Assembly (NCBI GenBank): GCA_973895155.1
Contig: OZ316891.1
Coordinates: forward strand, 16,953,651-17,017,650
Reading direction: 5' to 3'
DNA: 64,000 nt
From: Marsupella aquatica
Taxonomy: Eukaryota; Plantae; Marchantiophyta
Shown here: piece by piece, positions 1,966 to 64,000 of the stretch
Layout: each line of letters begins with the position of its first letter
Position numbering within the stretch: the first letter of the stretch is position 1
Position numbers and translations under genes: made by a program
The notes under the pieces: generated by a model
The model's input: the letters and a program-made list of their open reading frames with translations, nothing else
What the model was told of the DNA's origin: nothing
Database searches by the model: none

Positions 1966-1971
1966 TCTTTT

Positions 1972-6100: not shown

Positions 6101-6237
6101 AAACAGATGATGGGTACACCTCGGATTTTTCGACCTCTTCGCTAGTCCTGCAGCCATTGGAATTTGAACTGGAGGAAGTTCGTTACTTGGAAGTTTATCT
6201 GTCTGATGCTCCCATAAAACCAACTAGGCCCTCCTGA
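3184..6237 (+). CDS. gag: Gag + aspartic protease of element A
   Basis: 1017-aa ORF; capsid-like region (YLKEFEAAA...AQKWY...WFINGLP); three CCHC knuckles (CTRCSQQGHYPNEC, CWNCGQPDHYSPQC, CGNCGKEGHLPVEC); protease VDGGASVNLI...LLGRPWL. True start codon uncertain. Confidence 0.93.
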   Translation: MSEGDPPNKRKPTKTSSNSDAAKLVVTPRTLLPEFQSPGAPAPGSVWKQVGSIQEASGSLERPTSTRPLFVNLRSGPKLIGSQKTKLRQQTVRSVNQIDSGVDSTTERALSHTEGRNLGLPENTVAESLAQDNSVDLSQLDNPEPLSEAGGSSSSETSSSSGLGSPNPFATRSALPFVTLLAPTTMARNNVRYDRFFGTSKEDAEVYLKEFEAAAASNGQSQDAEKANLFGGLMKKGAQKWYDRFPDKQDWGKLKAAFLAKYKEEGAAARAFARISHLHMKKHGSVRKYADKLLDLVDQYNPATSKSTIKDWFINGLPSRIARYVRREGGTTLEEVQEAAQKYVDSEISERKRVKKDLKKDKRKKKKTSRSKSDSETESSESSTSEEDESTNSSTSDSSSSSSDSESVAPKKKKSSVKGNNKVPNQKKMDRMMEELSGQLSKLNVNIAAVKPVRRLPAPMRMNIWCTRCSQQGHYPNECPTLRTPVNYVDGQEEAEEYEYDPTYTVQTAPPGQYFPPPPASRPTWGPPKPTFNKPTSRPPMGPPGGYPPRGMPRQKGACWNCGQPDHYSPQCPYPKQEVGYTPVCGNCGKEGHLPVECPNPAKPRLMVRFAQEPVKEASRPEAKIRMVYSEEMEQCSFIQHMDVNRVELKPDSLFHQPVSGVVPDVLVSHLVKPEVVGMPNDRVQNRDKVLTNIYATTRSKKKETKKHEHQKVAKAPKDEGRKPCKEGLDKEDDPAYDRYDPKYFLPDISLEVKDHLEELVKEQVQSPNPPVVVKAKEPLKNPGYDIVEDVKNHPAHITIGELLQDNPVYRRQLRSLLAGKRRKKKLPSVDVLRTEWEDKGPMEIEVQIQGCVIRRVPVDGGASVNLITQSAAFNLGFTKFEPTPKILRMADQSRVVPIGKLTKVETLIAGVPFLLDYVVINPEIPSSFPVLLGRPWLYKAQVQVNWQSQELSFGKPKVTVSWVPEPHFGETQTDDGYTSDFSTSSLVLQPLEFELEEVRYLEVYLSDAPIKPTRPS

Positions 6238-6243
6238 CAATTA
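6235..6243 (+). promoter_or_regulatory. Stop-codon readthrough signal TGA-CAA-TTA
   Basis: A single in-frame stop separates gag-PR from RT; the next six bases match the CARYYA leaky-stop consensus. Confidence 0.8.
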
Positions 6244-9210: not shown

Positions 9211-9232
9211 AATTCCACCTGGGACAGGTTGC

Positions 9233-9248
9233 AATTTAAGTGGAGGGC
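9233..9248 (+). other. Internal copy of the polypurine tract
   Basis: AATTTAAGTGGAGGGC, identical over 16 nt to 12377-12392; lies 22 nt after the pol stop. Confidence 0.85.
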
Positions 9249-9593
9249 GGTAGTTATACTTAGTTAGAATTAGTGACCCTCCCTAGTAAGTATTCGGCAT
9301 ATTTTTTTAATTTTTTTTAGTTACTTTCAGTTTTTACATTGGACGCTGTGAAAAGCGTCCATTGTAACTCGACGCTGGGGAAGCGTCCACTTAGTTTACA
9401 AAGGACGTTGTGCAGAGGTCCGCTTTTGTATTAGTTCAGTTGCATGAGACGCTGTGAGCCGATGACTAGGCATCTTGTACAATGGCGGATTGCGACAGCT
9501 CAACGGGACGCTGAGGAGTAAGCAGTCGCGCTTCGCCCTAGTTCACTATGGAACACGATTCTCACTGAGCTTACGGAGCTAACAAGTCACGCG

Positions 9594-21711: not shown

Positions 21712-24700
21712 TCAGTTTTGAAAGGTTGTTCTTTGCGCATTTTCCTGTATAAATTCCGATAGGCTATGCATTCCGATTGATCTGGTTAGTGTTTTATGTA
21801 CAATTGGAGGCAAAGGTTTCGTGAATAAGTCTGCTGAGTTTTCTGAACTCGGGATCCATTGTACGTCTATCGTGTCACCTAGCTGCTCATGTGCGAAAAA
21901 GAATTTCGGGGCTATGTGTTTGGTTCGATCACCTTTTATGAAACCAGCAGAAATCTGTTCGATGCAAGGCCGGTTATCTTCATAGATCACAGTTGGTGAA
22001 CTCAGTTTAGGCATACCTGAGGTTTCTTGGATGTAATTGATCACGTTACGTAGCCATATGCATTCTCGACTCGCCTCGTAAAGGGCGATTATTTCTGAGT
22101 GATTGGAGGAGGTCGTGGTTAGAGTTTGTTTCGTGCTCCTCCACGATATCGCTGTAGGTCCGATCTTGAAGATATACCCAGTCTGAGACTTTGCATCCGC
22201 TGGGTCTGATAAGTATCCTGCATCTGCAAATCCGGATAGTATAAAGTTTGTGTTGCTCTGAAAAAGAAGTCCATGGTCGATAGTGCCGCTCAGGTAACGC
22301 ATTATCCTCTTTACCCCATTCCAGTGTCGAATAGTAGGTAATGAACTGTGGCGTGCTAACAAGTTAACTGCGAAAGCGATGTCGGGGCGGGTTTGGGAAG
22401 CCAAGAAGAGCAGTGCCCCTATCGCCGACAAGTATGGCTTTTCGGAGCCAAGTAGTGGCTCTGCCTCTGTTCTCTTTCGGAATATGTCCTTGTCTTTGTC
22501 CAGTGACCGAAGGTCCATTGGAGACCTGACAGCTTTTGCCGTGTGCATATGAAATTGCTTCAACATGCGGCGAGTGTAAGTTGATTGGTGGAGGAGTATG
22601 CCCTGCTTGAGGTACTCGAACTGAAGGCCGAGGCAGAAAGCAGTTCTACTGAGATCTCTTATCTCAAAAACCCTATTGAGTTTTTGGATTGTATCTTCCA
22701 GAATCTTTGGTGTTCCGAAAAGATTGAGGTCGTCTACATAAATCGCCACAATGATTATCTTTGTGCCTTCATGTTTGATGAACAGACACGGTGTGGGCTC
22801 AGATGTTTTAAATCCCATTGCTAGCATTTCGTTTTTAAAGTGTTGGTACTAGGTACGTCCGCTTTGCTTCAAGCCATACATTGATCTCAAAACTTGAACA
22901 GCAAATTTAGTTCTTGCGGTAAGTGCTTTATGGTCTGTTGCTTTCCATCCAATCGCTTTAGCTGTGGTATGTAGTACCGACTTATTTGTATGGCCAAAAG
23001 GGCCATCACTGTGGGCTGTATGCTCTTGTACTTTCGGCTCCCCCTGAAGGTGGTGATCCACTCGGGTTAGTAATTCGGGTGGGGCCTCCATATATATTAT
23101 AGTGTCCAAATGGCCGTAGAGGTAAGCGGTGACAATGTCTAGTTGATGCATTGTCAGGTTGTGGTGAATGGCGAATGCGATTAGAATTCTATATGTAATC
23201 ACATCCATGACTGGGGAGTAGGTTAAGTCATAATCTCTGCCAGGGATCTGGGTAAATCCCTTGGCCACCAGTCTAGCTTTGTATCTCACGATCTCTCCTT
23301 GGGCATTTCTCTTCTTTATAAAGGTCCACTTGTAGCCGGTCAGATGTGTTTCAGGTGGGGCAGGCTTGATGGGTCCGAATACCTGGCGCGAGATTAAAGA
23401 ATCCAGTTCCGAGTTTATGGCATTCTGCCATTCATGCCAGTCTGCTTGGGCTCGGGCCTCAGTTATCGTTGCCGGGTCAGGTAACTCTCCCATTATTTCT
23501 TGCGAAATTTGATAGGCAAATATATTATCGATAGGGGTTGAGACTCTGTCTCTGATTTGGCCTGTGTAGTTATAGTTAATGGCAATCTCCTCATTTTCTG
23601 TTGTGATAGGTGGTGTGGGTTGTGGGTGTGCGGATGCAGGTGGGTTCTGTGGTCTTCTTTGCCGAGGCTGTTTGTCCCCGGCTCCAGGTGGTCGGCCCCT
23701 TTTCTTCTTTGGTTCTGTTGTTGTTGCTGGTTGTGTCGTTATATCGATTCGGGATGGTGCGTTTGCGGCTGGTAGATGTGACCTGGTTACTTTTGCCACG
23801 TCTGCGAATGAATCTGGGAGTTCATCCATGATTCTAGTGAGGTGTAGGATGCGTTGGACCTCGGTATCTGTTTGGGCAGATCTCGGGTCATTCCAGAATT
23901 GTGAATTGATTTGCCATGTGAGGTCCTTTTTTAGTACAGCTTTATTCTCCTGGTCTGAGGTTAATTTCGGGAATATCTCTTCATAGAAGTGACAGTCCGC
24001 GAATCTCGCCTTGTATACGTCAACTGTAGTTGGCTCTAGATATCGTATTATTGATGTGGAATCGAATCCTATGTATATACCCTTCTGCCTCTGGGGTCCA
24101 AGCTTGGTGCGTTTGGGTCCCATGATGGGCACCAGGACTTGGCACCCAAAGGTGCAGAGGTGAGCCAAGTTAGGTGCAACGCCGAATGCCAGATGGTGAG
24201 GTGAGCTGGCATTGAAAGCTGATGGTCTGTATCTTAGTAAGGCGGCAGCGTGTATGATAGCGTGGCCCCAGGCAGATTGTGGTAGATTGCTCTGCATGAT
24301 TAGTGGTCTCGCTATTGTTTGGAGCCTTTTAATCAGGGATTCGGCTATCCCGTTTTGGAAGTGCACATAGGCAACGGGATATTCTACTTCTATCCCGGAT
24401 GCAGTGCAGAAGTCATCAAATGTCTGGGATGTAAACTCCCCGGCATTATCGACTCTTAATGTCTTGATTGGGTAGTCCGGGAACTGAGCTTTTAATCGCA
24501 GGATGTGGGCCAATAGTCTGGAGAAAACTAGGTTACGTGTTGAGAGAAGTGAAACTTGGGACCATTTGGAGGAGGCATCGATAGTGACTAAGAAGAAGCG
24601 GAATGGACCACTGGGGGGTCAACTGGGCCACACACATCGGCATGGATTCGCTCTAAAAATCATGGTATATTTTTGTCTGTGGTTGAGGGGGATGGTCTCA

Positions 24701-26270
24701 TGGTGAGTTTTCCTTGTGAGCAGGCTAGACATTGAGTTTTCATTGAGGTTGGGTGTACTGTGTTTGGTATACCGTGTGTATCTTTGATGATCTTGTGAAA
24801 CATCTGTGTGCCTGGGTGTCCTAGGCGTCGGTGCCAGATGTCCACGGATGGCAGTGCAGGAATATGCGTGTGGAAGGTGTGTATTTGTATGGCATAAAAA
24901 CCCATTGGAAAAGCTGTGAGCGTTTCCTTAATTTCTATGTCGTTTTGCGTCTTAGCTATGAGCTGTAGTACTTCTCTGGAATTGTGGGTACTAGTATGGA
25001 TGAGGAGGCCATTTTCTCGGATGTCTCTGAAACTCAATAAGTTACGTGTGGCTTTTGGTGCGTAGATGGCCGATTGGATATGGATCACGGTTCCCTTAGG
25101 CAGTATTAGTGTGGCTGGCCCGTTGCCTTCTTCTAGCTGATGGTTTCCCATAATCGTGGTGACTCTCCGTTGGGATGGGTTAATGTATTTGAAGTAGGTT
25201 TTGAGTCTCAGGATTGAATGGGAAGTCCCACTGTCGAGTATACAACAGTTGGGATCTTCTAGTGCTTTAGATGTGTCCAACGGAAGGACAGTATGTATTT
25301 CAGGTAAAACTTCTGGGGTCTCTAAGAATGTGCCGTAAGTTTCATACTCAGGAGTATTGATGTTCTTTTGGTATAGGGCCACGAGGTGAGCCGGTGCTCG
25401 ACATTCCTTCCTAATATGCCCTCTCGTTCCACATCGATGACAAGTGAGTGGGTTATCGGACTTATCTGAATTTGTGGTGGTCCTTGTCCAGCTGTTGCGA
25501 GTTCTTCCCGGATTTGATCGGCCGCGTCCCCTGCCTCCACGGGACATGCTCCTTCCCCCTCGTTGGGAGTAGTATCCTCGGCCACGAAAGGTATTCCTTC
25601 CTCTACTGCTCCCTCTTCCCCGGAATGATGTACTGCCGCGTCGCCATGTATTGAAGTGAGTTTCGGCTTGAGGTTGAGGTGGTAGAGTGCCTGGGGGTCG
25701 CTGCTTAGTGTTCTGCAACAGTAAGATTTGATGTTTCTCTGCCAACAACATGTGTGAGATCAATTCCGAGTAGGTTGTAAATCGCATGTTTCGGTATTGA
25801 GTTGATAATACCAGATTTGTTGAGTGGAAGGTCGATAAAGTCTTTTCAATTTGTTCTTCGTCATTGACCGGGTGGCCGCAAATCGCCAATTGGGAGACGA
25901 TGCGAAAAAGTTTGCTGTTGTATTCAGCGATAGTTTTGTGGTCCTGCACGCGAAGATTAATCCAATCGTGCCTTGCTGCTGGCAGGAAAATGGTCCGGGT
26001 GTGATCAAATCGAGAATGTAATTCGTCCCAAAGAATTCGGGGATTGTACGCATTCATGTACTGGCGTTTTAGGGAATCGACCAGATGGTGCCGAATCAAG
26101 ATCAATGCCTTGGCCTTCTCCTGGAGGGTGGGGCCATTGTCAGTTATGATAGTGTCCTCTAAATTCTTAGATGCCAAATGTGCCTCAACGTCTAGAGTCC
26201 AGGATAGGAAATTGGCGCCATCTATAGATAGCGCCTGGAAGTATAATTTCTCAATTGTATTTGCGGCCAT
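21712..26270 (-). pseudogene. Copia gag-pol polyprotein with a few lesions
   Basis: CHRCGTRGHIRKEC, LDSGTSH, WHRRLGHP, RVDNAGEF, YKARLVAKG, YVDDL, FADAG, ADLFTKPL. Stop at 24660, frameshift near 24615, TGG>TAG at 22849. Confidence 0.93.
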
Positions 26271-26586
26271 TGTATCTGTGGTAGTGAGATTTGCTCAGCC
26301 TGGTATTGTTGAACAGTGAGCCGGAATCGATGTGTAATTGGGAATTGAGGATGGGAATTCTCTGGGTCCTGCTGTGATTTGGACTGATTCGATTTTTGAT
26401 TCTATTGCTGCTATTTCGATGTTGAATGTCCCTCAAAGGATTAATTGCAAGTATCCCTCATCATCCTTCGAGCAGGATCCTTCAAGGAGTCCCGATTCCA
26501 TGGGATCGATGACCCCAATCCTCCTTGAAATGTAATTGCTACCATATCCGGCTCACGATCTTGAAAAAAATTTGTGTGCTTAAAAC

Positions 26587-47850: not shown

Positions 47851-48216
47851 TGCAATTGTGACGGGTCCTAGCAGAATTTTTTTGATACATCTAAGGCACC
47901 CGTGACAAGTCCTAGCATTAGCATTTCAGGTCAGTGAGCCTAGAAAATCAATAGCGAACAGGAGCAGTAGCTCGACCCCTGGCAGCCCAACCAGGGAAAA
48001 GACCAAAGCAGGGGAGAGTAACCCTGTCAAAGAGTGAACAAGGCGTAAATTCATGGCATTAGTTCGAGAGAGATAGTGTGAACCGTGCCGTAGGCCTCAA
48101 AATCCAGTTCAGACATTCTATGACAGTTTCCTCCTTGGTCCGCAATTTTATTTTTATTTCCAATCTATTGGCAAAACTTCAATCCGCTGTCTTCATAACT
48201 CAATTTCTTAATTTAT

Positions 48217-48360
48217 TCCCCGGCAGCGGCGCCAAAAAGAATATGTGGTAAGCGTTTTAGATGACACTTGTATAAAATATATCTTAGAAACTTGAATTCG
48301 TTCCCATAGGGAATAAAGGAAATCAAGTTATGATAGTATTCCTTGGAATTGTAGCCATTT
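48217..48360 (-). mobile_element. PBS and 5' LTR end of decayed gypsy element 'F' (internal remnants extend left to ~45900)
   Basis: 48234-48217 reads TGGCGCCGCTGCCGGGGA, identical to the PBS of A, 9 nt from an LTR-like ...TTACCACA end at 48244. Confidence 0.7.
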
Positions 48361-50715
48361 TATATATTTTAGTCCCCCCGCGAAAAGCCCCACGGGGAGG
48401 GCGCACAAACAGAACATATTCCGGGGAGACAGCCCAGACAAAACAGAGGACCAAACCACAAAAAACCACCTCAAACCCACATCAGGCAGGGAATTAATCT
48501 CCCGAGCGACACCTAACAGCAAAAGAGGACGACCACACAACCTAATAACCATCTAGAGGGCATCCATGCCCCCAGAACCATATACATTCAACGGTCTCAA
48601 CGTTCCAACCTCCCAGCAAAATCAGAGTCAACCAGCGGAAGTGAAACTGGTCCCCCCACCGCCGAGCCAGCTCCTGCGAAGCCCATCAATACATGATTTG
48701 GCCCGTAGCAGGCGTGTGCACTTCCTCCCTGGGGGGCAACGCCGACCAGAGGCAAATAAGTTCTCCACTGCCTCCAACAGGACAAGTCCCAAGTCAAACA
48801 CTCGTCTCCCCCCCATCTGAAACATGTGAGTGTTTCTCCCAATCCAGAGCCTCCAGAGAATCTGGTGCAAGACAAAAAGTTGCGCCACTCCCACAGGCTC
48901 CCTCCCACAGGCAGCATCTAAAAGGGCCATCAGCCCTTGTCCAATTGGCATATCCAGCGCACTCAATGAGGTCAAACAGATACGCCAGCAGCAGACAGCA
49001 TGTGCACAATGGAAAAAAAGGTGAGGGATGGTTTCCAGCCGTTCGTTGCACAACTTGCAGGCACCGTTGCTCACCTCTAATCAAAGCTCAAGGGCCCCAG
49101 TGAACAAGCCCCCCACAATGATCCTCCAAATAAAGGTCTTGCCTCTGGTTGGTAAATCCAATCTCCACAGTCTGTACCAACTCTCATTCCAACCTCTCTC
49201 CTCTCGGGTAAGAGACCAGATCCTATTCAGGCGTTTGTGATTTGAGGTCTTGGGCCGCAGGAAGTCATACACTCTGCAATTCTCAATTCTGAAATCCTTC
49301 AATGGTTCAGGTCTATCTGTCCACCTCCACTGTTTGGCATACAGGAAGTACTCTAACTGGCAGTGTGAAGCGCTCCATATACTTTCCAAGAACTTCCATG
49401 CAAGCAATCGATGCTCCGCAGAGAAGCCACACATATTGCTCCATCTAAGTGGGAGGTCCTTCCAACATCCTTCCTCCGCCGACCAACCATCACCAATCGA
49501 TCTCATTCCCAACCGGCCACAGATCGTTGCAATGTCCATAATGGCCAAATTAGGAAGAGAATGAAAGCCCACCATGCATCTGAGTGTGTCGGTGATGCTC
49601 CACCGGGCAGGCGGCCCCCCCCGGCCAGGCTCAAAGGATAGATGAGCTCTCACAAGCTCCCAGCATTGCCAGAGACCCGTAGTGTAGGGGAGCCCACTAA
49701 AAGTACGAGGTGTACATAAAAGCAATTGGTCTTGGAAGGAGTAACCATTTCTCCTAATAACCTTGTAGTTCATCCACCCCAACAGTCCCAGATTGGCCGC
49801 CAACATCTTGGACCATTCCAGTTCAGGCGAGTTCAGTGCTTTAGTGAACCATTGCGAGAGCAGGGCATCAGAGTGACTGCGGAAATCCCAAAATCCCAGT
49901 CCCCCCTCCACCCGTGGCAGTGCCATCCGGTCCCAAGCCACCAACGGAACCTTCTTCCCTCCTGAATCGTTGTATCCCCATAGAAAATCCCTATTGAGAG
50001 CAATAATCTTCTTGGCTAGACCAGCAGACGCCTTGCAATACATTACATGATAGATCGGAATAGCAAGCAATACCTGTTTAACTAGTAATGATCGACCAGT
50101 AAAGGGGGTATAACCACCGTGACAGCAAACAGTAAATAGTTACTCGTAACAGCAAATGGGTGGTAAAAATTTTGGAATTTTTTGGGGAATTTTTTTGGGG
50201 GGGGGGGGAATTTTTTGGGGGGAAAAATATTAAATTTTTTTTGTGATTCAGTTTTTTTTGGCTAGCGCCCGGAGCTAGTAATAGTATCGCCTTACACTAG
50301 AAAAACATTGTCATGTTTTAAATTATTTTGAAAATTGTGACTTTAATGACACATTTTTAGATTGTATAGTTTGCTCGTAATAGTAGATCAGTTTGCTATT
50401 TGCTGTCACGGTGAAAACCCTCCAGTAAAGGAAAGCAGCTTGTTGGACCAAAGAGCAAGCCTGGCACAAATTTTGTCAAGGCAGAATTTGTGCAGTTGTT
50501 CCGTGCTCAAGCCCACACCAAATGGTGCACACCAAGATATTTTTGCATCTCTCCCCTTTGACTGATATGACAGCCCGTGTTATTCAGCCAAGCCGAGACC
50601 TCCTCCATTGCCAATGGGATCACAATTGATTTCTTCAAATTCAGTTGAGCACCGCTAGCCTTCTCGTAACAGTCAAGAGCAGTTGTTGCTTCTTTGTAAG
50701 TAGTGGGTAATTCCA
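48360..50715 (-). mobile_element. 5'-truncated L1-like LINE (RT C-terminus, zf-RVT region, 3' UTR)
   Basis: YEKASGAQLNLKKS, KYLG, LSFTGRSLLVKQVLLAIPIY, VAWDRMALPRVEGGLG, KTFIWRI, CKLCNERLETIPHLFFHC, WRLWIGRN. Boundaries approximate. Confidence 0.9.
50105..50421. mobile_element. Mutator-like MITE inserted in the LINE
   Basis: TIRs GGGGTATAACCACCGTGACAGCAAA / TTTGCTGTCACGGTGAAAACCCT; direct repeat CCAGTAAAG(G) at 50096 and 50422; removal restores LINE frame KLLSFTGRS. Confidence 0.88.
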
Positions 50716-50807
50716 AAAGTAGGAAGAAACTGAAAATTTTTAAATTTTCTATGGTGTTTAAACTATAATTATTGCTAACATAGCGGAGATAGCATTCTGT
50801 CGGCAAG

Positions 50808-50952
50808 TTACGGGTTCCCAAGTCTAAGTTACGAGTAAACTCTTGTTTACGAGTTTACTAGTTACTAGTTAATAGTATCCTGGTTTATGAGTTTACGAGT
50901 TCACGACTATTTACTAGTTACGAGTTTACTAGTTAGGGCTTTACGAGTTTTG
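50808..50952. repeat. Cluster of (G)TTACGAGT / TTACTAGT motifs upstream of accessory ORF 'G'
   Basis: About ten short copies in ~145 bp. Confidence 0.7.
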
Positions 50953-51148
50953 CCTTACGCGTTGGCGACCGGGGATCGCGACGTCTTACGGCTACATTCA
51001 ACGGGACTTAGAAACGGAATGGCGAGCGTGCATTGAAGCGAAGGCAAGGTAGACCTTGGGCGCTCACTCCTGACTAAATCCCTACCTCCTCTATTGATCC
51101 TTTCGGCCTCCCCATTTCTTTGCGCTACTACAAGAAACAATTTGAGCT

Positions 51149-53574
51149 ATGGATGGCCTGGGAGCTGATGAGCAGTACCGAGTTGACGCATTGGCAATTC
51201 CTAAGAGCGTAGTCGCTCGAATTCCACAAGCGCCCGATAGTTATGCAAATTTACAGACTTCATTATAGCAGCTAGGTCTGGGGCATCTACTTGTCGTTCC
51301 TTGGGACGTAGAACTTGACTCATACTTGCAAGATTTTGTGAAGGGGTCGCTGCTTGCTCCTGAATTTTGACAGACCATTCAAGCTCGGCCAAGTCTGTGG
51401 ATTGTGGAGCAAATTGCTCGTGCCTTCCGCTGCCCTTCAGAAGGAGAAGGATTGTATTCAAAGAAGAAAGATTTGTCTACTCCCTACTTCTCTGGGATTC
51501 GCAATCTCACAAATGGCTGGAATCTAACACAGTGTACTTATCCAGATTTGAGAGTGCTTCTGGAATTTCTAGTGCCAATTTTACACCCAAAAAAGCCAAC
51601 CAATTGCCCAGTGGCTTTGGTGAACACAATTGTAGTTGCACACAGTGGAGCCATCGAAGTGAATTGGGCCTTGTTAATTTTCAATGTGATGAAGGATCAG
51701 GTGAGGAGCATGAAGGCAGGTAGACCTACCTATTTGCAGGTATATCTGTCTTAGCTCTATCAGGCTTATGGTTGTTTACATCCAGAGGAGAGAACAGAAA
51801 AAGGATTACTCCTGATCAAACTAGGCATTGAAGAAGAAATTGGTGTGGAAGAACCAGTGGATGCTATTCCCCTGGATTCTAATGATCAGAATGTGGATGT
51901 TGATATGGATTTGGAAGATGCCTTAGTGGGTGAACTTGAAGTTTCATCTGCTCATGATATGGAGTTGGTTCGACATCCTCTGGTTAACTTGGTGTATCAA
52001 GAGAAGTCAACGTGGAAAATCAACCTGGAGCTGAAAAAGCTGAGGACGTCTCTGAGCAACACGAAGCTGTTGCTGACCCGACCACTGCTGTCATCCTGAG
52101 GGTTGATCCGACTACTTCTTCAAAGGTAGAGTTCAACCAGCAACTTATTGATAAGTTAATTGCTCTTTTCGGTTGTGATGATGTGGAACTCTATAATGTT
52201 GTCTGTAATTTAAGATCAGAGGTAGTCAGCTTATCATCCCCATTTCCAGATCAATTAACTCCTATCAGGACCACCTCCCCTATTGTGGGATCAGCCTTAG
52301 AAGAATTCGTTGCTCTCAGTCCTGTTGCACCACCAAACCTGCCTGTAGAGCCAAGTGAACCTGTTCCTATGACAAAGGATGTAAATTATGTTGCCATTGT
52401 AAATGACTTACTGGACATGCTACAGTGTGAGCCACAGGAGATTATGTCCGTTGTTAGCCACTTAACTCAGAAATCTCCAGTTATTAAAATTCCCCATCAT
52501 CCAGATCCTTACTCATACAGTCCTGATTCCAACTATGAACCCATTGATGGACCTATCTTCACTCGGGGTCGCTCTGAAGATCCTTATGTTAGACGGGATC
52601 TCTCTGATGACTCTGACCCGCCTTTGGATAATGACACTTATAGATCTTATGACAATTCCCTTGAGTCATCACCAAGGCAGGGGTTTGAAGATGTTGATAC
52701 AGCTTTGAGGTCAAACCCAAACCTAGTAGCAGTGGTTACGTCCTCTACTCAGACTCCCAGGAATGCTACTATTGAGAAGAAGTATCCCAGGCTTCCCCAG
52801 GCTCCAGTACAGAAGTATGTAGACATCTGTAAGGTTATGCATGCCAACATGCCACCACTTGGAGAATTCTGGAGATACTATTACTTAAAGAAAATTGAGG
52901 CGAGCTACATTTTTGACCTAAAGTATCATGGGACTTCTCGATTGGAAATGGCCCAGTTTGATGAGCACTGGACTGACTCTGTCTACTTTTGACCTATTCT
53001 GGCAATGATGTTGCTGCAAGGTGATGTAGAAGTGGAGGATCCTGACCTACTCCTGGCCTACTTTGGGAATTTTGCAGCTTATGTTCTAGACTTTGTGCTT
53101 ACTTTTCTCATGCAGAGTAAGAAATCAACTTCTTGGCAGAACAACTACATCCCTAAGGAACCTAAGGTTATGTTGGTTTCAACCAGCACATTGGTTGATA
53201 AGCAGAGAATCTGGGATAATGTCACCACTCACACTTTGGGCAAGTTCAACCGGTACTTTAAGGATGTATGTTGGAGACTTCGACCTTTCTACTCGAAGAT
53301 GATGAGAACTGAGGATTTCATGGCCTATTATCCCTAGGTTCATGCTGCTACCTGCAATCACTATGATGTGATTGGAATTTATAGGGAGGCACTCCGAATA
53401 GACTCTTGTTATTTGATGAGGAGAATGCCTGTGATGTATCCAGATAGGCAACTGAGATGTTTGCCCTATTCTCAAGGTTCAGCACGACAGGCTGAGCTCA
53501 TGGAGGTTGTCCAATCAGGCACTATTGCTTTTGTGGAGCTTCTCAAAATCAACGACATTCAACACCGAGACTAA
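51149..53574 (+). pseudogene. Decayed accessory ORF 'G', homologous to the extra ORFs of A and C
   Basis: LGLGHLLVVPW, ARPSLW, NGWNLTQC, EFLVPILHPKKP, VNWA, TYLQVYL; several in-frame stops and a frameshift near 52010; distinct C-terminal region. Confidence 0.8.
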
Positions 53575-53884
53575 GGCAGAAGTCCTAAGTGTTTTTAGTT
53601 AGTTTAGAGTAGTGCATCTTGTCCGATTTTTAGAAATATGTTCTAGAGCTTTAAAAGCTGTCATACTTCTTTAGTATATAGTCTGGGGGTATTTACATAA
53701 GACAGGAAACGGGAAACCAGGAAACCAAAAACAGCAACCGATGACAGGAAATAGGAAACGGGAAAGACAAAACATTAACAAAAAATGCTCAAAATGTTTC
53801 CAGCGTGAACCAAGATGTTGACTTCGAAACAGGTTTTTTAGAAGATTTGTGTCAAATCCAGGCAAAATGGTAGAGACCAAGAGC

Positions 53885-53956
53885 ACCTACTAGTGTGAAA
53901 GAACTAAGGGGATTCCTTGGCATGGTGGGTTACTACTGAAGATTCGTAGAGGGCAT
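53885..53956 (+). pseudogene. Small gypsy RT/RNase H linker fragment
   Basis: PTSVKELRGFLGMVGYY*RFVEG, lying between two copies of a ~40-bp direct repeat. Confidence 0.6.
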
Positions 53957-54026
53957 TTCCATTACACAAGAAACAGGAATTTCAAAGATTCGTGTCAAAT
54001 CCAGGAGAAATGGTCGAGACCGAGAG

Positions 54027-57000
54027 TAGCGCCAGGCGCTCGTTTTATAAAATTTTGGGAACAGTACATTTAAACCCAGGTATTCCCAGAAAGTATAGGC
54101 TCGCACCAGGCGCTACCAAAACTAGTTTATAAATGTCCGCTATCTACTCTTTACACAAGCGAATCAAAATACGATAGCGATTAGAAAATTGTAATGTAGT
54201 CTTTCATCCAGTACCACAAATGAAAGGGGCTAGTCCCGAACACATTGGTTACACATTGCCCACACACAAAACACATTGCCGTCTTTGTGCATCGGGAGAT
54301 TAGAGAACATTGGGCGCCTCCATCAGGAAAGTGAGCACACTAGCGCCGGGCGCTAGTTCTGTCGGTCGTGGACGAACCGCACTCATCATCGAGTCCAGCC
54401 ATAGATCGGGCTCTGTCAGGGACAAAACCATGCTCACGATTGCTGATAAATGCCAAGGATGGCGTAATCTCCACACCTCTTTGAGAGTCCTTGGCAGGAA
54501 TGGTTGTATTCTGGAAATCAATCCTCCCTAGGTCCTCCTGGGTGCGCATGTCATCCTGACGAGTCGGGCTGTGAGGAAGAGGAGGACAATGAATTTTAAA
54601 TCTTTCCAAAAAATTCCTTGGCGGGGAATCTCTGAGCCATGGGATAAGCGTCTCGCTCGGGCTAATAGCCTCGCATGGAGGAAGCTTCAGCCTATTTCGA
54701 AAGTTACTCGTCTCGCTCCACTCAGGCTCTTCAGTGACGGGCAGCGGACCCTCCTCTGAAATCATCTGAGACAAACTAGGAACTTCGGTTCGGTGATCCA
54801 TTTTAGGTCAGCGATGGCGATTCGGAAACAAGTGGAAGCAAAAGAGATTAGGTAACGAAAATCCAAAACCGAGATCTCGGTACAAAATGATCACGATGAA
54901 ACGCGAACACAAGGATATACGGAACAATTGAGACCGTGGTTGCCTCAAATGGTGCGTGGAAGGAAACGTTCAATATGTCAGTTGGACATTACGAGAATAT
55001 ATCCATTAGTATAACGAAAATAGAGTATGGAGTAAAATTATAGTAGCGCCTGGCGCTAGTATAACATTGTAAGGTAGTAATGAAAGAAACGAGCCTAAGC
55101 ATGTTGCAATAGATAGTTATATTTCCCAAACCACATTACATGAGTTCTCATTTGAGTAGCGCTCGGCGCTAGCATAACCTCAAAATGAAGGTAATTAATA
55201 TTCTGAACTAACCTCATCAGATAACTCTGACCCGCTTGATTTAGACCTATCGGTGGACTTTGCTTCGTCGTCTATGAATTTGCTTTTGCATATATCATCA
55301 ACATAAGGGTTTCTTAAAAACTTCCTATCAGAACCCCTCCTCAGTTTAAGGCCATTATTCTCCCATTGGAGCGTCCTCACACTATCTACTCTCCTCGCCG
55401 CATTCTCAACGTACGAAGGTAAAACAAATGGTTTTTCCGGAGTCCCAACATAACTCCTGGCAACTTTCCTCCTCAGTTGGAAACGCCTTCGTTGATTCCA
55501 GTCAGACCTGAGGATGAGAATTTCCGGTGGTATGTCAACACAATCCATTTTCTGACAATATATCTAAAAAAGGATTGGAAAGCGAAAGCGAAGAGTGAAT
55601 TCCGGATGAGGGAGCTTGACAGGAAGCTTACGAGCATTACTCAGAAGAATCTCCGTTGTCGCTACCTTCATCAATTTCATGATCGTCTCCAGTTTGAGAT
55701 CCTATGGGAATGACAGAATCCGGCTCTTCCTCCCCTTCCTCCGCATCCTCTTCATCGTCGGAATCAAAATTCAGTACTGATCTAAGCTTGTCTCTCTTCC
55801 TCTTCACAACCACATTTGCGGGAGGAGCTATTATTGGAGGAACTTTTGGAGTTAGAAGATCCAAAAATATCCTTGAGGCTGTTTCAATGAACTCCTTCCT
55901 GTTTTCCACCCCAAGAACAAATCGACCAAAATAGTCCCCGGCCACAAAAGTACTCCCAGAACCGACAGCCCAATCAAAAACAATATCTCCTGGGCAGGTA
56001 ATTAACTCTAGTACCGACTGCATAAATCCAGGATGGAGTCTAGCATTTCCGGCAATCAAGCTCGGGACTAGTATCCACCTTCGCAAACGGAAGTCCTATC
56101 AAATTTGTGCTAGAGGGATCCTCGGTTTTTGATAGGGGCCTGAACTTTGGGTCCTTGGGGATTTTTACTTTTGATGAGATTCGAGAAAAAATATCTAATC
56201 GCAAAGTGAATACCTGAAATGAACAAAATAATGTCAGGTTATGACCCAGAGAGATTAACAGCGCCAGGCGCTAGCAAAAGTTTCAGTAATGTTTGTGTAT
56301 TTACCTGAACATCGGACTTGGCCCGGTACATAGGGAACCCCATCACCACATTATATGTCGAGAGACACTGGAATTTCTTTGACTCTTGACACGTTGAGAT
56401 GACTTGCGAAATCTGATCATAATCCCCCGTATGGAGGATTGCAATCATTCCATCATCAGCCAAGAAAGGATCCATCGCTCGGAAAAAAGATCGAGCTATG
56501 GTGTAGTCAGGAATGTTCCATTTCGGAACTTTCCGGTCGAGCAACGTTGGCTTCAACCCAATTGGTAGATAGATGAAACCAGCGTCAACACCAAAAGGCC
56601 TCTCCTTCCCACCCCTCACGACTCCCTTCGGACGGCATCCTGATTTGACGAGGTCTTTAACCCACTTCTCGGCATCAGTAACCCAATCTGGCTTCTCTTC
56701 CTTATTGAAAACACTATCATAAAATTCAGTAACGCTGGACTCAACTAAACAATGTCGAGATGCTCTGGATTTAAAATTCCCAACATCCCTCTGAAGTCTT
56801 GTGGCAGATAGACTATCTCTTTCCGAATGCCCAGCCTCACGCGTCTTCTTATTCTTTTTCTTTGTGCTGGTTGCATCGATAGGTTTGGTCAATTTCCCCA
56901 AATTCATAGGGGTAATTGGATCTGGTAAAGTACTAGTATTTGCTTTAGATCCTTCTGGCGTAACCTTGGTATCATCTGTCGCGTCCGATATCTTCTGACC

Positions 57001-60000
57001 TGAGGTAAGAGTTCAACAACTACATAATTAGTGAATTACTTGACGGAAAATGGAAACACACAATAGTAGCGCCGGGCGCTAGCACAAATCTGCAGAAAGA
57101 TGATAGATAAAACCTACGTTTCCTCCCAGATTGAGTTGACGCACTTGGCATAGCAGTGTCAACTTTAACCTTCCCACGAGGCTTTCGGCTTCTATCGACA
57201 TGAATAACGACTGTCTCGCAGATCTTTTGTAATTCTGTTCCAGACTTGTCGACCTCACCAAGAAGTCCTTGCTTCATCTCAGAGACAATCTTTGGAGGAA
57301 TCTGAGACTTTGCCAATTTTTGAAACCAATCCTTCTCTGTTTCGTCGAAAGGTGAATCCCACTTGTCTGTGTCGAGATACCAAGGGCAGTGGGTTCTTTC
57401 CCATTCGGTCATGGTGCATGGTGGGAATTTTCCCTCTGTTGGATACATTGAATACAATTCCCCAACCTGATCTCCCTCCTTTGCCACAATCCATTTGTGA
57501 AATGCAGCTAGATACGCCCACAATGATTCAGAGGAATGAATCTCTATCCAGATATAGAAACGATCCAAATACCTCTTTGCTCTTTTCTGATTTTTTTCGG
57601 TGTACACCTCCTTATCCGGATATTTTGAAGGCCACATCGTGTTGAAGAACTTCGCCTTGACAAGGTCACTAAACTTTCTAAAATCACCGCAAATAATATC
57701 AATCAGACATTCAATGGAATCACACTTTGACTGAGCAAGCCGATCGACGGGTAGCGTGTCAATGGCAGCCAAAAGTGCCGATTGTAACATCCCAATCGCA
57801 ATACCCTCGACGGTGTTCCAAGTCTGCCAAGTGTGACACCACTGCTTGACTGGATCATCGTTCACGCTTGCAGGGTGGTAGAATTGTTTTCGCAATTCTG
57901 GGGTACAATGAGCCACAAGCAGGGTACACCTAAGTTTTGGGTCAAGAGCGGAAACTACTGTGAATAACCTGGCACGATCCATAGTGCAGACAACACTGTC
58001 TGGTTTCTTCTCGCGCTTGTTCTGCTCTGTTAGTACGTACATCTTTGCACAAGTGCTAAAGAAATCTTCAAACTCAGGGCTAAGGAGAGGAGTTATCTTG
58101 GATGTTTCTTGGACCAATCCTTTGTGGCCTCTTTCAGCATTAGTGCATGCCTCTTTGCAATGTCATCTGGTGCCCATGGATTGCCTTGACTTGCAGCCAA
58201 CGCCATGTCCATCTTGAACTGGTTTGTGTAAGATTTTATTTTGTTTTCACACAAAATGTACACAAGAGCTTCAAGAGGCATCTTTCTGGTGTACCATGAA
58301 TGCTTTCGCATTTTGACTTTAATGTACTCAAATTTTGCAAAATTGGCACTATCTATAATTGACTTGTAGTGCTCCAAATCGTGCGAGAGAATCCACGATG
58401 GTTCGACTACAGCCTGCCCTAACCTGCGATCACAGGAGGTGATTAGCAGCGTCGGGCGCTAGCAAAAACAGTAATACCAAATGCTCAATTCAAATTGTTG
58501 TCGAAATGAGGAACTAGAAAAGGGAAATGAATAAAACCAAAGTTTATGAAGAAATTCTTACTGGTTCACTATGTGCATCGCCGCCTCGATCTGAATTTGG
58601 GAAGCTTTGTCTCCCTTGAAAATCGTACAAAGGACTCTTGGGTGATACTTGACGTTGTCGGGATTCTCCTTGGTGACGATTGTCCAAGAGTAGAGCCGGT
58701 GATTCCCATCAAAAACGCAAAACATTTTGTCTTTCAGGTAATGGAAAGCTGGATCGGCCTCGCATTCCAATTCAAACTTCTCATTCTCTCCAACCCAAAT
58801 GGCGTCCCAACCCTCCCTTATCTCTGGAGTACATATTTGCTCCACACCTTCTGAATCAGTTGGCTAGACGAAGAAGCACATCCCAATCCTCGGATTGTAT
58901 CCACTGCTTCGGAACGAGTCCTTTAATTTCTCAATGGAAGCACTTTCCTTCTGCAAAGTTTGGACCACCTCCATGTGAAGCAAGCAACAAAGTGGGATCC
59001 GTGGCGGTTCCTTCTCTTGCCCGCGAAAATCTTTACCAAACGACATGATGTGTTGTGTAATCACGTCGTCCATCCCTAATCCAACCTCGCTTCCTTCTCC
59101 CATCGCAAAATCGATCACAGTATCCGTATCCATCCTCCCCCTCCTTGGCTTTGGAAATGGCGGCGAAGTGTTCGAAGACGGGATTGCTCCGCTTGAACTT
59201 GTTACTCGACGTGAGTAGACAGACCCAGAAAATGAAGATTTGGTGGACTCGCACTGACCTTGATCTCGGTCAGGAACTGTAGTATATTCTCCTGGAGAGC
59301 TTGGGGCGCTTGAAGGTTGCATCGTGGAGGGCCCAAATACTAGAGGTGGTACTCTCTACACTCACGCTCCTAACAAGATTACCGTACACATAGTGTACAT
59401 CTCACACCTTTAAAACATGACCAACAGAGTGCCGTCTGTGCCTCGTTAAGATGTACGACACGCACAATAGTGAAAATGACCAACCAATCGAATCATGGAC
59501 AAGTGGTCAATACTGGTTGGACATTGGAGATGAGCTCATTCCCTCTTTCGTTGATAAGATCTGACGGGGGACCATCAAGAGTGATCGGTACGTTGGTTTT
59601 GTTACCGTTAAATCTAACCGTTGGATGTTCGAATGAACGATTATATGATACTAGCGCCGGGCGCTATTGACTCTATAACATCATAACATGCCTTTCACGG
59701 TGGTTGAATTGTAAAGATGATGCCAGCGCCAGGCGCTATTTAAATTCAAAACATCCCATTAGAGTCACCAATGTTAAGTTTCATCAAATTGACACGTTTT
59801 ACCTAAATAAAAGTACTTAATTTGGAAATTTCATGGTTTTTGATGAAATTGGGGAATGATAGTGCCTGGTGCTAGTACAAAATAGCTAAATGAATTATTG
59901 CTTTTCGAGGGTTTCGTCGGTAATTATTGGGACAAATATAGTGAATCGAACCCTTGTCTTTTAGTAGCGTCGGGCGCTACTAAATGTTTTCATACGATTT

Positions 60001-62355
60001 AAGTGACATAACCTATGTTATTGATGATAAGTGTCGTTGGCAAAATGACAAATGTCATTTATTTGCATTCCGTAACGACTAGTACCCGTGTTGTCGTTTG
60101 CAAATGATAAGTTAATCAGTAGCGAATTGAGTTCTCTTCACTTATATGAAGCAATGTAATTCCTTTCCTCCCCACATTTTTTGGTGGTTGATTCGTTTTG
60201 CAACATTGTCCAACTATGTCTACATCAGTTGTGATTGTTCGTCCGGATACTGGGGACATTGTTAGCATCCCAGTTGGTTTAGCCAATACTTACAAACAGA
60301 TTAGTGAGAGTTATCTTTGTGGAAGATTTGACATTTCTCTGAATGATATTATTTCGATCAATCCTGAGCATAATTCTGCTGATGAGAAAGGATCAGCAAT
60401 GTTTGATGTTGACGATGGAATTAGATTTTGGCACCTGAATGCTGGCATTAGATACTCGATAATTCTTTGATCGGCTTTAATTTCTGTCGAGAAAGATGGA
60501 AAACTTCCAGCTGTGATTCACATTTCTGACAGTGATGATGAGGATATATTGGCTCCAGTGATGCAGATGTCACCCTCACCAGAGACTTGTATCAAGGCAG
60601 AAGGGACCATTTCGAGCCAGCCATCAATGGCGAGTGTTGTTTATCGTCGGAGTGCGATGGATGCAATTCTTAAATCTACTGGTCATAGTGAACTTTCGCA
60701 GTTTATTCGGACTTGTGATTTTAGGCATGAGCAGGTGAATTGTCTTCCTAGCAAATACAATGGAAATATTGTGTTTGAACTGCCACCCACGGAAGGATTG
60801 CTATCAAAAGGTTCTAGGCTCCGCGATATGGATCGGCCGAAAGACTGCTACTTTTGGACTCGGATCTTTCCAACTTCTACGAATGTGCAACCTAAGAAGT
60901 TGTGGGAATTTGGAAAAGTCACATGCACAGGATCACTTGAATGTCGAAACCAGAAATGTGAGTATCTTTTGCGGAAGAAAATAAGGAATTTGAAGGCTTG
61001 GGATGGTACGCCCAAGCTTGCTGGGCCACACTGCGTAGGAAAGATTATTGAGGATGGTGGGGTAGTATGTCATTACTGCCAACAACTGCCCTTTTGTAAT
61101 GAAGCTTGCACTGCAACGATGTTTTATATGTACCCATAGTTACTTGTAGACTCGGATACCTGTAGTCACATGTCACGTCTCGCTGTGCATGTTGGAACAC
61201 ATGCACATCCCTCTCGAAAAGTGTTTTCTCATGGTGCAAAGAAGATTGCGCAAGACATTATCAAGAAACAACACGAGGCAACGCCGTCTGCCACACCGTC
61301 GGGTCTAAAGAATGCCATAACTGGGTCTTTGCGAAAGGCTCTCTGCGTGTCTAACAATGATATAGAGGAATTGGAGGAGAAAGAAATTTGGGAGTCATTG
61401 ATGGTAGTTTCTTCCCCTCAAAAGTTTGCATCTCTCTTTCGTAGTGTTCGGCAGGATCAAAAAGGTAAGGGCGAGTTAGAGTTTCTAGTTGAAATGCAGA
61501 AATGTATCAACTTTCCCTTTTTACAACGATACATGCTCCCTGGTCAAGGACGTAAGGAGGACAGACCTCATATTTTTAAAATGACGGTAAAGGGACATGG
61601 ATCTGGTGTGGATTTGTTACGCCAAATGCAACCTGGAGGTAGACTCGAAGGGGCCTGGGTAAGTTTTGATGTCATGAGGAGGCTGACAATAGAGTGGATT
61701 ACAATTAGTGCTCACGTTTACGATCACAACTACCGAGCTCTTTGCACAATTTTCACTTGTGAGTTGAAAGCGGAAGATACTGAGTCCTTGGAAAAAGCTT
61801 GGAAATTGATGATTGAGGTTTGCCGTGAGAATGGGTTGGATGATGTAGTGATCCATGGATTCATGGCTGACAATGCTCAAGCTGGATGGAACGCGGTTCG
61901 GAATGTCTTTTTTGGTGGTCATCCTAACCCCGAAAAGGAGCGATCTGACGCATTTCACTTTTATCAATCATTTCATTGACACTCCGTTGAAGGAGTCCTG
62001 GAGGGGAAATGAGAGGAGCACAGCAAGTTGTGGGACTCCTTAAGGAATGCTTCAACTTTTGTTGGAGCGTACAGGATTTCAAGGGATATTGATTTATGGT
62101 GGAGATCTGGGAACTATGTTACAGGAAAACTTCGGATGCTCCAAGGCTGGCTTTCGTGGTGGGTTGTCCGATGGTGTCAATGGGGAAATTTTATTCGTCT
62201 GGTGAGTTTCTTAATCATATTTGTTCCTCATAATTGACATTAATACCAGCGCTCGGCGCTAGCATTACTAAGTCATTCTTCGGATTACCCAGGACTGTTA
62301 TTCCGTTCTATTTGTGAAATTATTTTGATCATATTCATGGTAGCGCCCGGCGCTA
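54027..62355. repeat. Dispersed 15-bp palindrome TAGCGCC-N-GGCGCTA, 14 copies
   Basis: Starts at 54027, 54101, 54341, 55044, 55157, 56259, 57067, 58447, 59652, 59724, 59860, 59965, 62247, 62341, with 0-2 mismatches; one more copy at 50263. Confidence 0.92.
55637..59322 (-). pseudogene. Intron-containing gene: ParB/Srx-like N-terminal domain + beta-class N6A/N4C DNA methyltransferase-like domain
   Basis: ParB-like: IEKLKDSFRSSGY...VFDGNHRLYSW. MTase-like: FLADDGMIAIL and LELITCPGDIVFDWAVGSGSTFVAGDYFGRFVLGVE. GT-AG introns 58561-58424, 57117-57000 and 56304-56214 (first two checked to join in frame). Stop at 58864; frameshifts near 58110 and 56060. Confidence 0.78.
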
Positions 62356-63998
62356 GTTTACTCGTAGCTTTATAATATGATACTGTGGCTCATAATCATA
62401 GTTGACGCTGTTTGGATATTGCTTTATTTAATATGGTTTCAAATACACATTTCCTTAACATTGCTCCTATGTTTAATCCAGGACAAAAGTGTCAAAGAAA
62501 GTGCTATGATTCCCAACTGTACAACTTCGGAAGCGGCCCATTCTATAATGAAAGCTTGGCAAACAAAGAAGAAAGCTGGTCTATTCGAAGCTTGTGAGAT
62601 GGATCAAAACAGAGCATTGTCGCAAGTTGCGGCATATACAGCCTATCGGAGGGGGCTAAATCGTGGTAAGGGGCCTACGATATGGGAATTGGCATTCCGT
62701 TCTACAGATCAAGCTGGTTCTTCCAAACTTTTCCAAGATGCTTCTAATATGCTCCTTTTCGGTGCGGCTGAATTCAACCTGGAAAGGAATGCCCCACTGA
62801 ATGGGGATGTTATGACAAAGTCCATGAAGAGGAAAGGACAAGCCACAGGGAACGTCTCTGCACAAGACTCCCATCGGCATGACACTATTCTGGTAACATC
62901 GCCAAATACTCGTGGTATGAAGAGAAAAAATTTGAATAGGGAGGAGTTCTCCCTGTTGAGCAGACTCCTCCTGTCTGTGAGAATGTTGTGGTGGATATAT
63001 CTGATAGTGATATCGGAGAAGACATTGATTGGACTACTCCACCTTGGAGGAGAACCACCAGGTCTTGTTTGGATCCGCGAGCTGCACCTCCCACTTGTGA
63101 ACGGCCTTTCAATCAGTCGTTAGTGTTGGAGACGGATGTCCGACCTGGTGAATGGCACCTACGAAGAACGACCAAACATGGAGCAGGCCCTCAATGTAAT
63201 GGATCGTTGGGTGGGAGATCAGATCGAGATGAATGTCGCAATCGTCTGAAAAAGGTTGGGTACCCGTCAACAGATGGAGTAGTTGGCATTGTTGTGAAAG
63301 GTCATTGTATATTCAGGGGAGAACCACATCCTGAAATGATTTGGTTTTGTGCGAACAATGCTTGCTATAAGAGTTGGCCACGTCGTAATGTCGTGAATCT
63401 TCCACCATTTCCCTATACGCTTCCTGTTCTGAAAGGGACTAACCTTTCTGAAGCAGAAGTCCAATTCTTGACGGAGAAAGGGGTCCAAATCGGTCGTGAG
63501 GCCGGAACTCAGCATGTTCCATCTCCGTTTGAGTTGCGAATCAATGTAAATGTTTTCCCTGAGAAAATCAATCTCCTAGAGCCAAATATTCGCCTTCGGA
63601 GTAGAAATGGGAAGAATACAATCCCACGATCAAATCTTTCACAAGGTCACTACACGAGAATTGAATCTGCCAGCAAGGAGCCCATGACCCTAATTCGGCA
63701 GTGCGATGTTTCCAACGGGAACTCTTGGGGAAAACAATTTCAAATCCAAACCCATGAGAAACTCCGAACTGCAAAGACGTACTGGATGCAAATTTGCATT
63801 TTCCCGTGTTGTTCTTGTGAGGACTTCTATCATCGCCATTCCCATGGAAGACCCTACATGCCTTGCAAGCACCTATACTGGGTGTATACCAACGTCCTCA
63901 AACTTGATGTCGTGGATTCAACACTGGCTAGTCAGCCGATTCTCACTGTGGGGGAGATTAGGCTCATTCTTGCACGGCAGAATGCTCTGAATTTATAG
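60216..63998 (+). pseudogene. MULE-family DDE transposase with GCM/WRKY-like N-terminal Zn domain and C-terminal SWIM finger
   Basis: CTGSLECRNQKC...CHYC...HVGTHAHP; WVSFDV; FMADNAQAGWNAVRNVF...AFHFYQS; TTSEAAHSIMK; CSCEDF...PCKHLYWV; intron 62202-62481; stops at 60468, 61137 and 61977, plus frameshifts. Confidence 0.85.
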
Positions 63999-64000
63999 GG

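Follow-up and report, generated by a model that had tools for sequence, protein, structure and literature searches.

The DNA analyzed here is a stretch of 64,000 nucleotides from the liverwort Marsupella aquatica (NCBI GenBank assembly GCA_973895155.1, contig OZ316891.1, positions 16,953,651 to 17,017,650 of the forward strand), which is referred to as the window and is numbered from its first letter. From position 53686, its likely left end, onward, the window is occupied by an element that is a decayed copy of a multi-copy DNA transposon, likely of the Mutator type. It contains two divergent genes, a transposase on the plus strand (start codon at 60216) and a "cargo" gene on the minus strand (start codon at 59322), and is interspersed with copies of a 15-bp palindrome, TAGCGCNNNGCGCTA (TAGCGC-NNN-GCGCTA). 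An earlier note on this DNA had described the genes as lying head-to-head about 0.9 kb apart and the copy as decayed. Both statements were confirmed: the two start codons are 894 bp apart, and the genes are broken by three frameshifts and five in-frame stops. Only two bases follow the transposase stop codon before the window ends, and the right terminus of the element lies beyond it.

Allowing up to two mismatches, the palindrome is found 16 times in the window. Shuffled windows contained 0.60 matches on average and 3 at most, and none of 100 shuffles reached 16. A chance origin was rejected on these grounds, and the locus is indeed studded with this palindrome, as the note had stated. Fourteen of the copies are located in the element (54027-62355), one at 50263 in a miniature inverted-repeat transposable element (MITE), and one, with two mismatches, at 9526. 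Within the element, the pattern scan places five copies in the left flank, beyond the end of the cargo gene (54027, 54101, 54341, 55044 and 55157, spanning 54027-55171) and four in the shared upstream region of the two genes (59652, 59724, 59860 and 59965, within 59323-60215). The other five are distributed over the three introns of the cargo gene and the single intron of the transposase gene, each of which holds one or two. None of the 14 copies touches an exon, though the six exons make up 66% of the element. Enrichment of a short motif in the element's own non-coding DNA, a feature of VANDAL transposons and their VANC proteins, was thus observed, with 14 of 14 copies being non-coding. Since the flanks of the copies are unrelated, we regard the palindromes as dispersed single sites and not as a tandem array.

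The best independent check was provided by a metagenome contig (L001) whose transposase is 69% identical to that of the window. In its homologous intron, the half-site recurs in three palindromes that have a spacer of 2 bases, where 0 would be expected, and outside of these palindromes the intron aligns poorly with that of the window. One L001 palindrome is centered in a near-perfect 60-bp inverted repeat within this intron (positions 1172-1231 of the contig). No palindrome was found in the 4,690 bases of L002, a more distant transposase locus (34% identity). Two of the 95 stretches from the metagenome scan were confirmed; neither reached a cargo gene beside L001, and the upstream sequence of L002 is about 0.9 kb long. 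The palindrome was also detected at 33 loci in prokaryote genomes and 122 in viral contigs, mostly as single sites, and tblastn searches at these loci for relatives of the transposase or of the first cargo exon gave no hits.

The transposase gene consists of two exons. Exon 1 (60216-62201) encodes a Cys/His-rich N-terminal region that is followed, according to the alignment of homologues, by D (FDVMRR), D (MADNA) and DxxH (SDAFH). An intron of 280 nt (62202-62481), which holds palindromes at 62247 and 62341 and has its counterpart in the homologous intron of L001, leads to exon 2 (62482-63998). This exon is 27% identical to exon 2 of L002 and encodes a candidate catalytic E (TSEAAHS), assigned by eye, and a C-terminal SWIM-type finger (CSCEDF...PCKH). 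In-frame stops are located in exon 1 at 60468, 61137, 61977 and 62010, and a frameshift in exon 2 between 62922 and 63021. The stop at 61137 is missing from most other copies in all four of the public runs to which the window was compared.

Mutator-like elements (MULEs) are characterized by a DDE transposase with a C/DxxH motif that is related to IS256, by a C-terminal SWIM finger, and by terminal inverted repeats with a target duplication of 9-11 bp. We found seven homologues of the transposase at 44-59% identity, and D, D and DxxH are kept in all eight full transposase homologues; L002 has the CxxH variant. The designation of the gene as a MULE/SWIM transposase in the earlier note stands through L002, but not through the window itself: Pfam gave no MULE or SWIM match for the scanned open reading frames (ORFs) of the window (15 + 4) and no MULE match for the transposase homologues. 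On exon 2 of L002, which aligns with that of the window, the SWIM model PF04434 scored above its cut-off, and the IS256 model matched L002 with E=0.003, below the model cut-off. The finger of the window has the C-x-C...C-x-H residues and no Pfam match. Due to the conserved motifs, the SWIM and weak IS256 matches in L002 and the 9-bp target duplication of the MITE, the transposase likely belongs to the Mutator superfamily; this duplication is indirect, coming from a MITE that shares the first seven bases and the palindrome with the element, whose own right end is outside the window. L002 itself carries a seemingly intact transposase gene of two exons (898-4161) with a very short, palindrome-free intron at the same position, and may serve as an outgroup of the family. 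No transposase relatives were found in viral contigs, and sequence searches of the PDB with transposase, methylase and ParB-like queries returned nothing useful.

The cargo gene was modeled with four exons and three GT-AG introns in phase, yielding about 1,110 codons that are disrupted by two frameshifts and a stop, in agreement with its earlier description as spliced. On the minus strand, exon 1 (58562-59322), exon 2 (57118-58423), exon 3 (56305-56999) and exon 4 (55637-56213) are separated by intron 1 (58424-58561, 138 nt, palindrome at 58447), intron 2 (57000-57117, 118 nt, palindrome at 57067) and intron 3 (56214-56304, 91 nt, palindrome at 56259). The first two introns were assigned from their splice sites, the third also from homologous exon-level ORFs that stop at the same place. 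A protein from the liverwort genus Calypogeia, P0020, spans the joint of exons 3 and 4 and aligns on both sides of the frameshift that follows between 56097 and 56056. The shared intron position, together with the 36 homologues of exon 3 described below, indicates that the cargo is a conserved protein and not debris.

The last two exons are homologous to methyltransferases of the beta class, as the note had supposed. Exon 4 encodes the half of the amino-methyltransferase fold that binds S-adenosylmethionine (SAM), with DWAVGSGST and a subsequent G-x-E-x-R, and an acidic tail. It matched PF01555 with E=4.3e-7 and 30.5 bits (cut-off 26.7) and DNA methyltransferases of PHROG with E-values down to 2.9e-6. 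A linker and the catalytic half of the fold are encoded by exon 3, so motif IV precedes motif I, which is the beta-class order. For exon 3, 36 homologues (25-69% identity, E-values down to 2e-75) were retrieved from 1.84 billion representatives in a search that was seeded with this exon and covers only this clade. Four of 20 proteins looked up were named, all of them from Calypogeia fissa at about 30% identity. When a profile of exon 3 was aligned by hhalign to 25 reference beta-class enzymes (a set that excludes two loci of G025, an unpublished genome on which no claim here depends), an F-x-L-P strand was placed on DLIFADPPY with E=0.0015 and a score of 31.2, compared to at most 18.7 in 40 column shuffles.

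At the position of motif IV, the window reads YLPI. Two homologues that do not span this position were dropped, and of the 34 that were kept (P0041 and P0043 being weak matches), none has the D/N/S-x-P-aromatic motif, which is present in 23 of the 25 reference enzymes. The commonest states are ALPT (10), YLPT (5) and FLPN (3); the first position varies freely (A, Y, F, C, S, R), and an aromatic residue does not occur at the fourth. The SAM-binding motif (DWxxGxG and G-x-E-x-R) is kept in all four sequences that reach that far, namely the window and three Calypogeia proteins. Loss of motif IV predicts a dead enzyme by established methyltransferase chemistry. Because the motif is replaced throughout the clade, the cargo protein is predicted to be catalytically dead and is likely a pseudo-methylase, and the idea of a mark written by the element itself is not supported. 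In an AlphaFold model of the homologue P0016, residues 121-270 reached a per-residue confidence (pLDDT) of 71-92, and the SAM-binding half remained under 50. Foldseek gave no match for this model at E<=0.001. Structural alignment with VIA-align yielded weak similarities, the best with a Z-score of 5.8 to Trm14 (root mean square deviation (rmsd) 3.4, 70 aligned residues). M.MboIIA followed with Z 4.3 (rmsd 3.4, 85 aligned), and 24 of 50 rows were titled methyltransferase or methylase.

Exon 1 encodes a ParB/Srx-like pattern, i.e. the helix IEKLKDSF..SG followed by DGNHR. By eye, it follows the order of ParB proteins, where a helix like LeeLaaSi..G precedes GxxR, with an insert of 43 residues between the two. 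DGNHR is identical in all three exon-1 homologues (63-79% identity), which are also open across the position of the stop at 58864-58866. A hidden Markov model of 30 ParB domains found the helix (box I) and GxxR (box II) of one of them, P0047, in the right order with low scores, and further matches of exon 1 to ParB and DGQHR models remained below threshold. We consider it probable that exon 1 encodes a ParB/Srx-fold domain. The arginine patch of the earlier note is thus present and conserved, but the homology to ParB was non-significant in every test. The AlphaFold model of the exon, with a pLDDT of 41 from five sequences, was too poor for a fold search (best Z 2.9), and no relatives of the exon were found in GTDB genomes, phages or plasmids. 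In the Atlas, P0047 lies nearest to fungal clusters of DUF3723, with a score of 0.95. The family is assigned to 31-71% of their members, but this recognition is below the trusted level and is a lead only. DUF3723, an accessory gene of Starship elements, may then be ParB-like too. We found no literature in the open-licence domain that joins DUF3723 and ParB.

Exon 2, of about 435 codons with a frameshift near 58150, is the candidate sequence-specific DNA-binding part of the protein. It had no Pfam or PHROG match; a word search among longer proteins was negative for all 1,721 candidates, and the Atlas returned unnamed matches at 0.90 or less. A weak pairwise match (E=1e-4) was obtained with the N-terminus of Calypogeia P0026, a protein which joins such a piece to the methylase. 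The accessory families of plant transposons in Pfam did not match any of six cargo ORFs.

The extent and copy number of the element were assessed by comparing contigs of four public runs with the window; the stretch or part of it is present in five runs from three organisms, none recorded as RNA. Each run contributed 405 to 4,129 contig pieces at 80-100% likeness, and all 30 bins of 48000-64000 were covered. Because of these many pieces, the element region represents a family of diverged copies and not a single locus. A bacterial contamination was rejected in view of the GT-AG introns, the neighbouring long terminal repeat (LTR) elements and long interspersed nuclear element (LINE), and the multiple copies in two organisms. 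After position 53685, contigs of all four runs (7, 11, 8 and 6 contigs) share one common alternative continuation, and contig joints (53709>54021, 53759>54021 and 53860>54072) connect the terminal part to the part with the palindromes. The element is therefore likely inserted at 53686 into another high-copy repeat. Its likely left terminus (53686-53760) begins with GGGGTAT, about 340 bp to the left of the start at 54027 given in the earlier note.

The same first seven bases are found in the 317-bp MITE (50105-50421), which lies in a LINE and has imperfect terminal inverted repeats, a 9-bp target duplication (CCAGTAAAG) and the one palindrome at 50263. Empty sites were observed as contigs that skip 326 bases in runs X2 (three contigs) and X3 (one contig). 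The MITE is likely a non-autonomous passenger of the element's family.

Several published systems resemble the element. In the brown alga Ectocarpus, the transposon Sola1-1_Ec32 carries an accessory gene of 1,104 aa opposite the transposase that combines a ParB-like part with an N4C/N6A methyltransferase, and its authors propose that the protein binds and modifies its own element (PMC12477816). By this description, both cases are large DNA transposons with the cargo opposite the transposase, the same domain order and a similar length (1,104 aa versus about 1,110 codons), with the ParB part being weak here. However, the alga carries a Sola1 element whose accessory methyltransferase is predicted to be active, whereas the host here is a land plant, the transposon is likely of the Mutator type and the catalytic motif is missing. 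The term "palindrom" does not occur in the main text of that source. Plavaka transposons of red algae contain PAG2 with PF01555 and PAG3 with a ParB-like domain (HHpred E=0.29), as well as inverted-repeat arrays beside the ParB-type gene, for which self-binding has been proposed; this cassette is mobile between superfamilies and is found with Mutator in Chondrus (bioRxiv 10.1101/2025.02.11.637652). Common to both are the PF01555 cargo, the weakly detected ParB-like domain and the inverted repeats near the ParB-type gene. In Plavaka, however, ParB and methylase are found in separate genes, where their fusion partners are a 2-oxoglutarate oxygenase and a SET domain, and tandem arrays are formed by the repeats, whereas the cargo gene here is one predicted fusion and its palindromes are single and dispersed.

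The VANDAL transposons of Arabidopsis, which encode the VANC anti-silencing proteins, are Mutator-like elements. VANC21 recognizes its own element by short motifs in non-coding DNA, which lie in introns, between genes and at the termini, and hypomethylation extends to an unrelated transposable element with VANC6 motifs (PMC5735166). An extra gene, non-coding motifs that differ by subfamily and hitch-hiking elements are thus common to VANDAL and the element described here. The VANC motifs are 8-9 bp long, asymmetric and tandem, in contrast to the 15-bp dispersed palindrome, and the action of VANC was shown by experiment, whereas the present element is known from its sequence. Fusions of ParB and N6N4-methyltransferases, in which a ParB-fold N-terminus with GxxR precedes the amino-methyltransferase, are common in phages (PMC12704722; PMC4738411), and the cargo resembles them in this order. 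The phage fusions are prokaryotic and intron-free, whereas the cargo has 43 extra residues ahead of DGNHR and an extended middle region, and the H-P-T-Q-K-P stretch of the phage enzymes reads RLHPGF or RMSVGF in the cargo clade. The nucleotide preference of ParB-type proteins cannot be predicted from sequence (PMC12704722). A bacterial ParB-methyltransferase fusion of 619 aa with DGAHR (L223, G011:C1:14526-16142) also gave no D/N/S-P-P-aromatic motif in a pattern search.

The earlier note had also pointed to the N4C methyltransferases of Marchantia. DN4MT1a/b of this liverwort is a host enzyme; it has TSPPY, is active and works across the genome in sperm (bioRxiv 10.1101/2021.02.12.428880). 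The link holds at the level of the fold, a bacterial-type beta-class methyltransferase in a liverwort, but not beyond it: the transposon cargo reads YLPI, and membership in the DN4MT1 type was rejected as it has no TSPPY. The kind of system described here is already in print as a prediction, from algal transposons. In the open-licence literature (Repbase and subscription papers are outside this scope), we found no report of such a system in liverworts or other land plants, of a catalytically eroded clade, or of dispersed intronic palindromes with a subfamily-specific spacer. New here are the land-plant host element of Mutator type, the clade-wide catalytic loss and the spacer that differs between subfamilies.

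By analogy with VANC, whose targets the layout of the palindromes mirrors, we give about even chances to the reading that the cargo protein is a self-recognition or anti-silencing factor composed of a ParB-like switch, an unassigned middle region that would read DNA, and a dead methylase domain. The two-fold symmetry of the palindrome suggests a dimeric protein as its ligand, and since ParB proteins bind palindromes as dimers, the cargo protein would be the best candidate. That this ligand is encoded by the element is suggested by the symmetry of the site, by its conservation between subfamilies, by its exclusion from coding sequence and by its retention in the MITE. The protein would bind the 14 non-coding palindromes of the element, marking members of the family as self and shielding them from host silencing. 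The middle region encoded by exon 2 may read the TAGCGC half-sites, and the ParB-like switch, gated by a nucleoside triphosphate (NTP), may enable loading of the dimer at a site and its spread along the element. The dead methylase domain would serve as a DNA-gripping or SAM-sensing module and not as a writer. As with VANC, occupancy might reduce or prevent CG/CHG methylation or bring in an activator of the host, so that the transposase would stay expressed, and the change of the spacer from 3 bases here to 2 in L001 would provide each subfamily with a private address. The self-recognition proposed in the earlier note thus receives indirect support from the exon-avoiding palindromes (14 of 14), which recur in every intron, in the homologous intron of L001 and in the MITE.

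Several observations weigh against this reading. The ParB assignment found no Pfam match for exon 1 or its homologues; hhalign of ParB against the exon-1 profile gave E=0.14, within the range of shuffles, with the separate halves scoring no higher than shuffles, and the PHROG ParB-like (E=0.054 and 0.27) and TIGR03187 (E=0.06) matches all fell short of significance. ParB/parS systems bind a palindromic site through a helix-turn-helix domain, with loading and sliding that depend on CTP, but no helix-turn-helix was identified in exon 2 by Pfam or the Atlas. For the catalytic half, the HH probability of the profile match is just 17%. The full fusion of the ParB-like exon with the rest is predicted from the gene model, as no fetched protein holds both exon 1 and the methylase end, and no bridging contig was seen that links transposase and cargo in other copies. 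The avoidance of exons has a naive p-value of 2e-7, which takes no account of coding constraint. Neither does base composition speak for protection: the observed/expected ratio of CpG in the element is 0.76, barely higher than the 0.45-0.74 of six neighbouring repeats, and for CHG the element ranks below all of them (0.87 versus 0.98-1.17). All five in-frame stops are TGA or TAG, the outcome expected if methylated sites decayed from C to T, and this copy was therefore probably unprotected. A copy with a broken cargo gene could be served in trans.

Other explanations of the locus differ in what the cargo protein does or in what binds the palindromes. The cargo could be a methyltransferase that is active in spite of an atypical catalytic loop and labels the element as self by writing N4-methylcytosine (4mC) or N6-methyladenine (6mA), as a private mark, in or close to the palindromes. 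The SAM-binding motif kept in four of four sequences is consistent with this, as are the L-P, W-N and G positions that are nearly invariant around the old active site; the cargo genes of Ectocarpus and red algae are predicted methylases, and Marchantia has active N4C enzymes. However, a motif IV whose first position is free and whose fourth is never aromatic in 34 homologues, together with RLHPGF or RMSVGF in place of H-P-T-Q-K-P, speaks against this explanation, which we regard as quite unlikely. The palindromes might instead be sites of the transposase itself, bound through its Cys/His-rich N-terminal region for complex assembly or autoregulation, with the cargo doing something separate. Transposases bind their own elements, the MITE retains one palindrome although it needs just what mobilisation requires, and five palindromes lie within the left 1.5 kb of the element. 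Nine of the 14, however, are located deep inside, in introns and the promoter region at 2.5-8.7 kb from the left end, and L002, at 34% identity, lacks the palindrome in its 4,690 bases. Transposase sites appear unlikely.

A role of the cargo protein at the palindromes need not concern silencing either. It could serve transposition logistics or self-restraint, as a ParB-like clamp that bridges the element ends or as a copy-number repressor. The four palindromes in the 894-bp shared upstream region are placed like operators, ParB is described as bridging and condensing DNA, and the signal of CpG retention is absent. But palindromes in every intron of both genes fit the VANC layout better than operators, and the clamp itself is putative; we judge this possibility improbable, to the same degree as binding by the transposase. 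Finally, the palindromes might act as RNA hairpins in splicing or stability, or be relics of an old micro-duplication, with the cargo being a captured gene that is passively carried along. A copy is present in each intron, and the 6-bp stem with its short loop can fold, yet nine of the 14 palindromes are outside introns, the distance to the acceptor varies from 30 to 227 nt, and the flanks of the copies are unrelated. As the cargo is also conserved at 25-69% identity with its intron position kept, this explanation is very unlikely.

Some further features of the window were recorded. In the left subterminal region of the element, a 58-bp direct repeat (53826-53883 and 53970-54026, 84% identical) abuts the first palindrome. 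Downstream of the cargo gene, two stop-free frames on the minus strand (54340-54807, 155 codons, and 55195-55563, 122 codons) lie apart with two palindromes between them; they had no Pfam match and are possibly a third small gene or due to chance. In the high-copy repeat split by the element (50700-53685), short units of the TTACGAGTT type are arranged in tandem at 50847-50949. This repeat also has a reading frame full of stops at about 51150-53574, of which the scanned part had no Pfam match. To the left of the element, the window consists of repeat DNA of plant type, in which Gypsy-like and Copia-like polyproteins and a LINE fragment were recognized by eye. Among these are a nearly intact element of Gypsy type, in which pol is followed by an additional long ORF (3181-11828), and a Copia-like element with long open frames (21712-26294).

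The clade-wide loss of motif IV shifts the question from the mark that is written to the role of a dead methylase on its own element. With a candidate site, a spacer variant (3 versus 2 bases), a one-site MITE of 317 bp and a lineage related to the transformable Marchantia, the idea of self-recognition is directly testable. A wider generalization, which we consider doubtful at present, is that land-plant transposons of the Mutator type carry a ParB/parS-like addressing system. In such a system, a prokaryote-derived, NTP-gated sliding clamp would load at family-specific palindromes in each intron and spread over the element, a disarmed methylase would block or evict methylation, a one-base change of the spacer would create a new address, and MITEs would parasitise the system via a single site. 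If true, this would mean a ParB-type clamp that acts on eukaryotic chromatin, and an anti-silencing tool that may be re-targeted.

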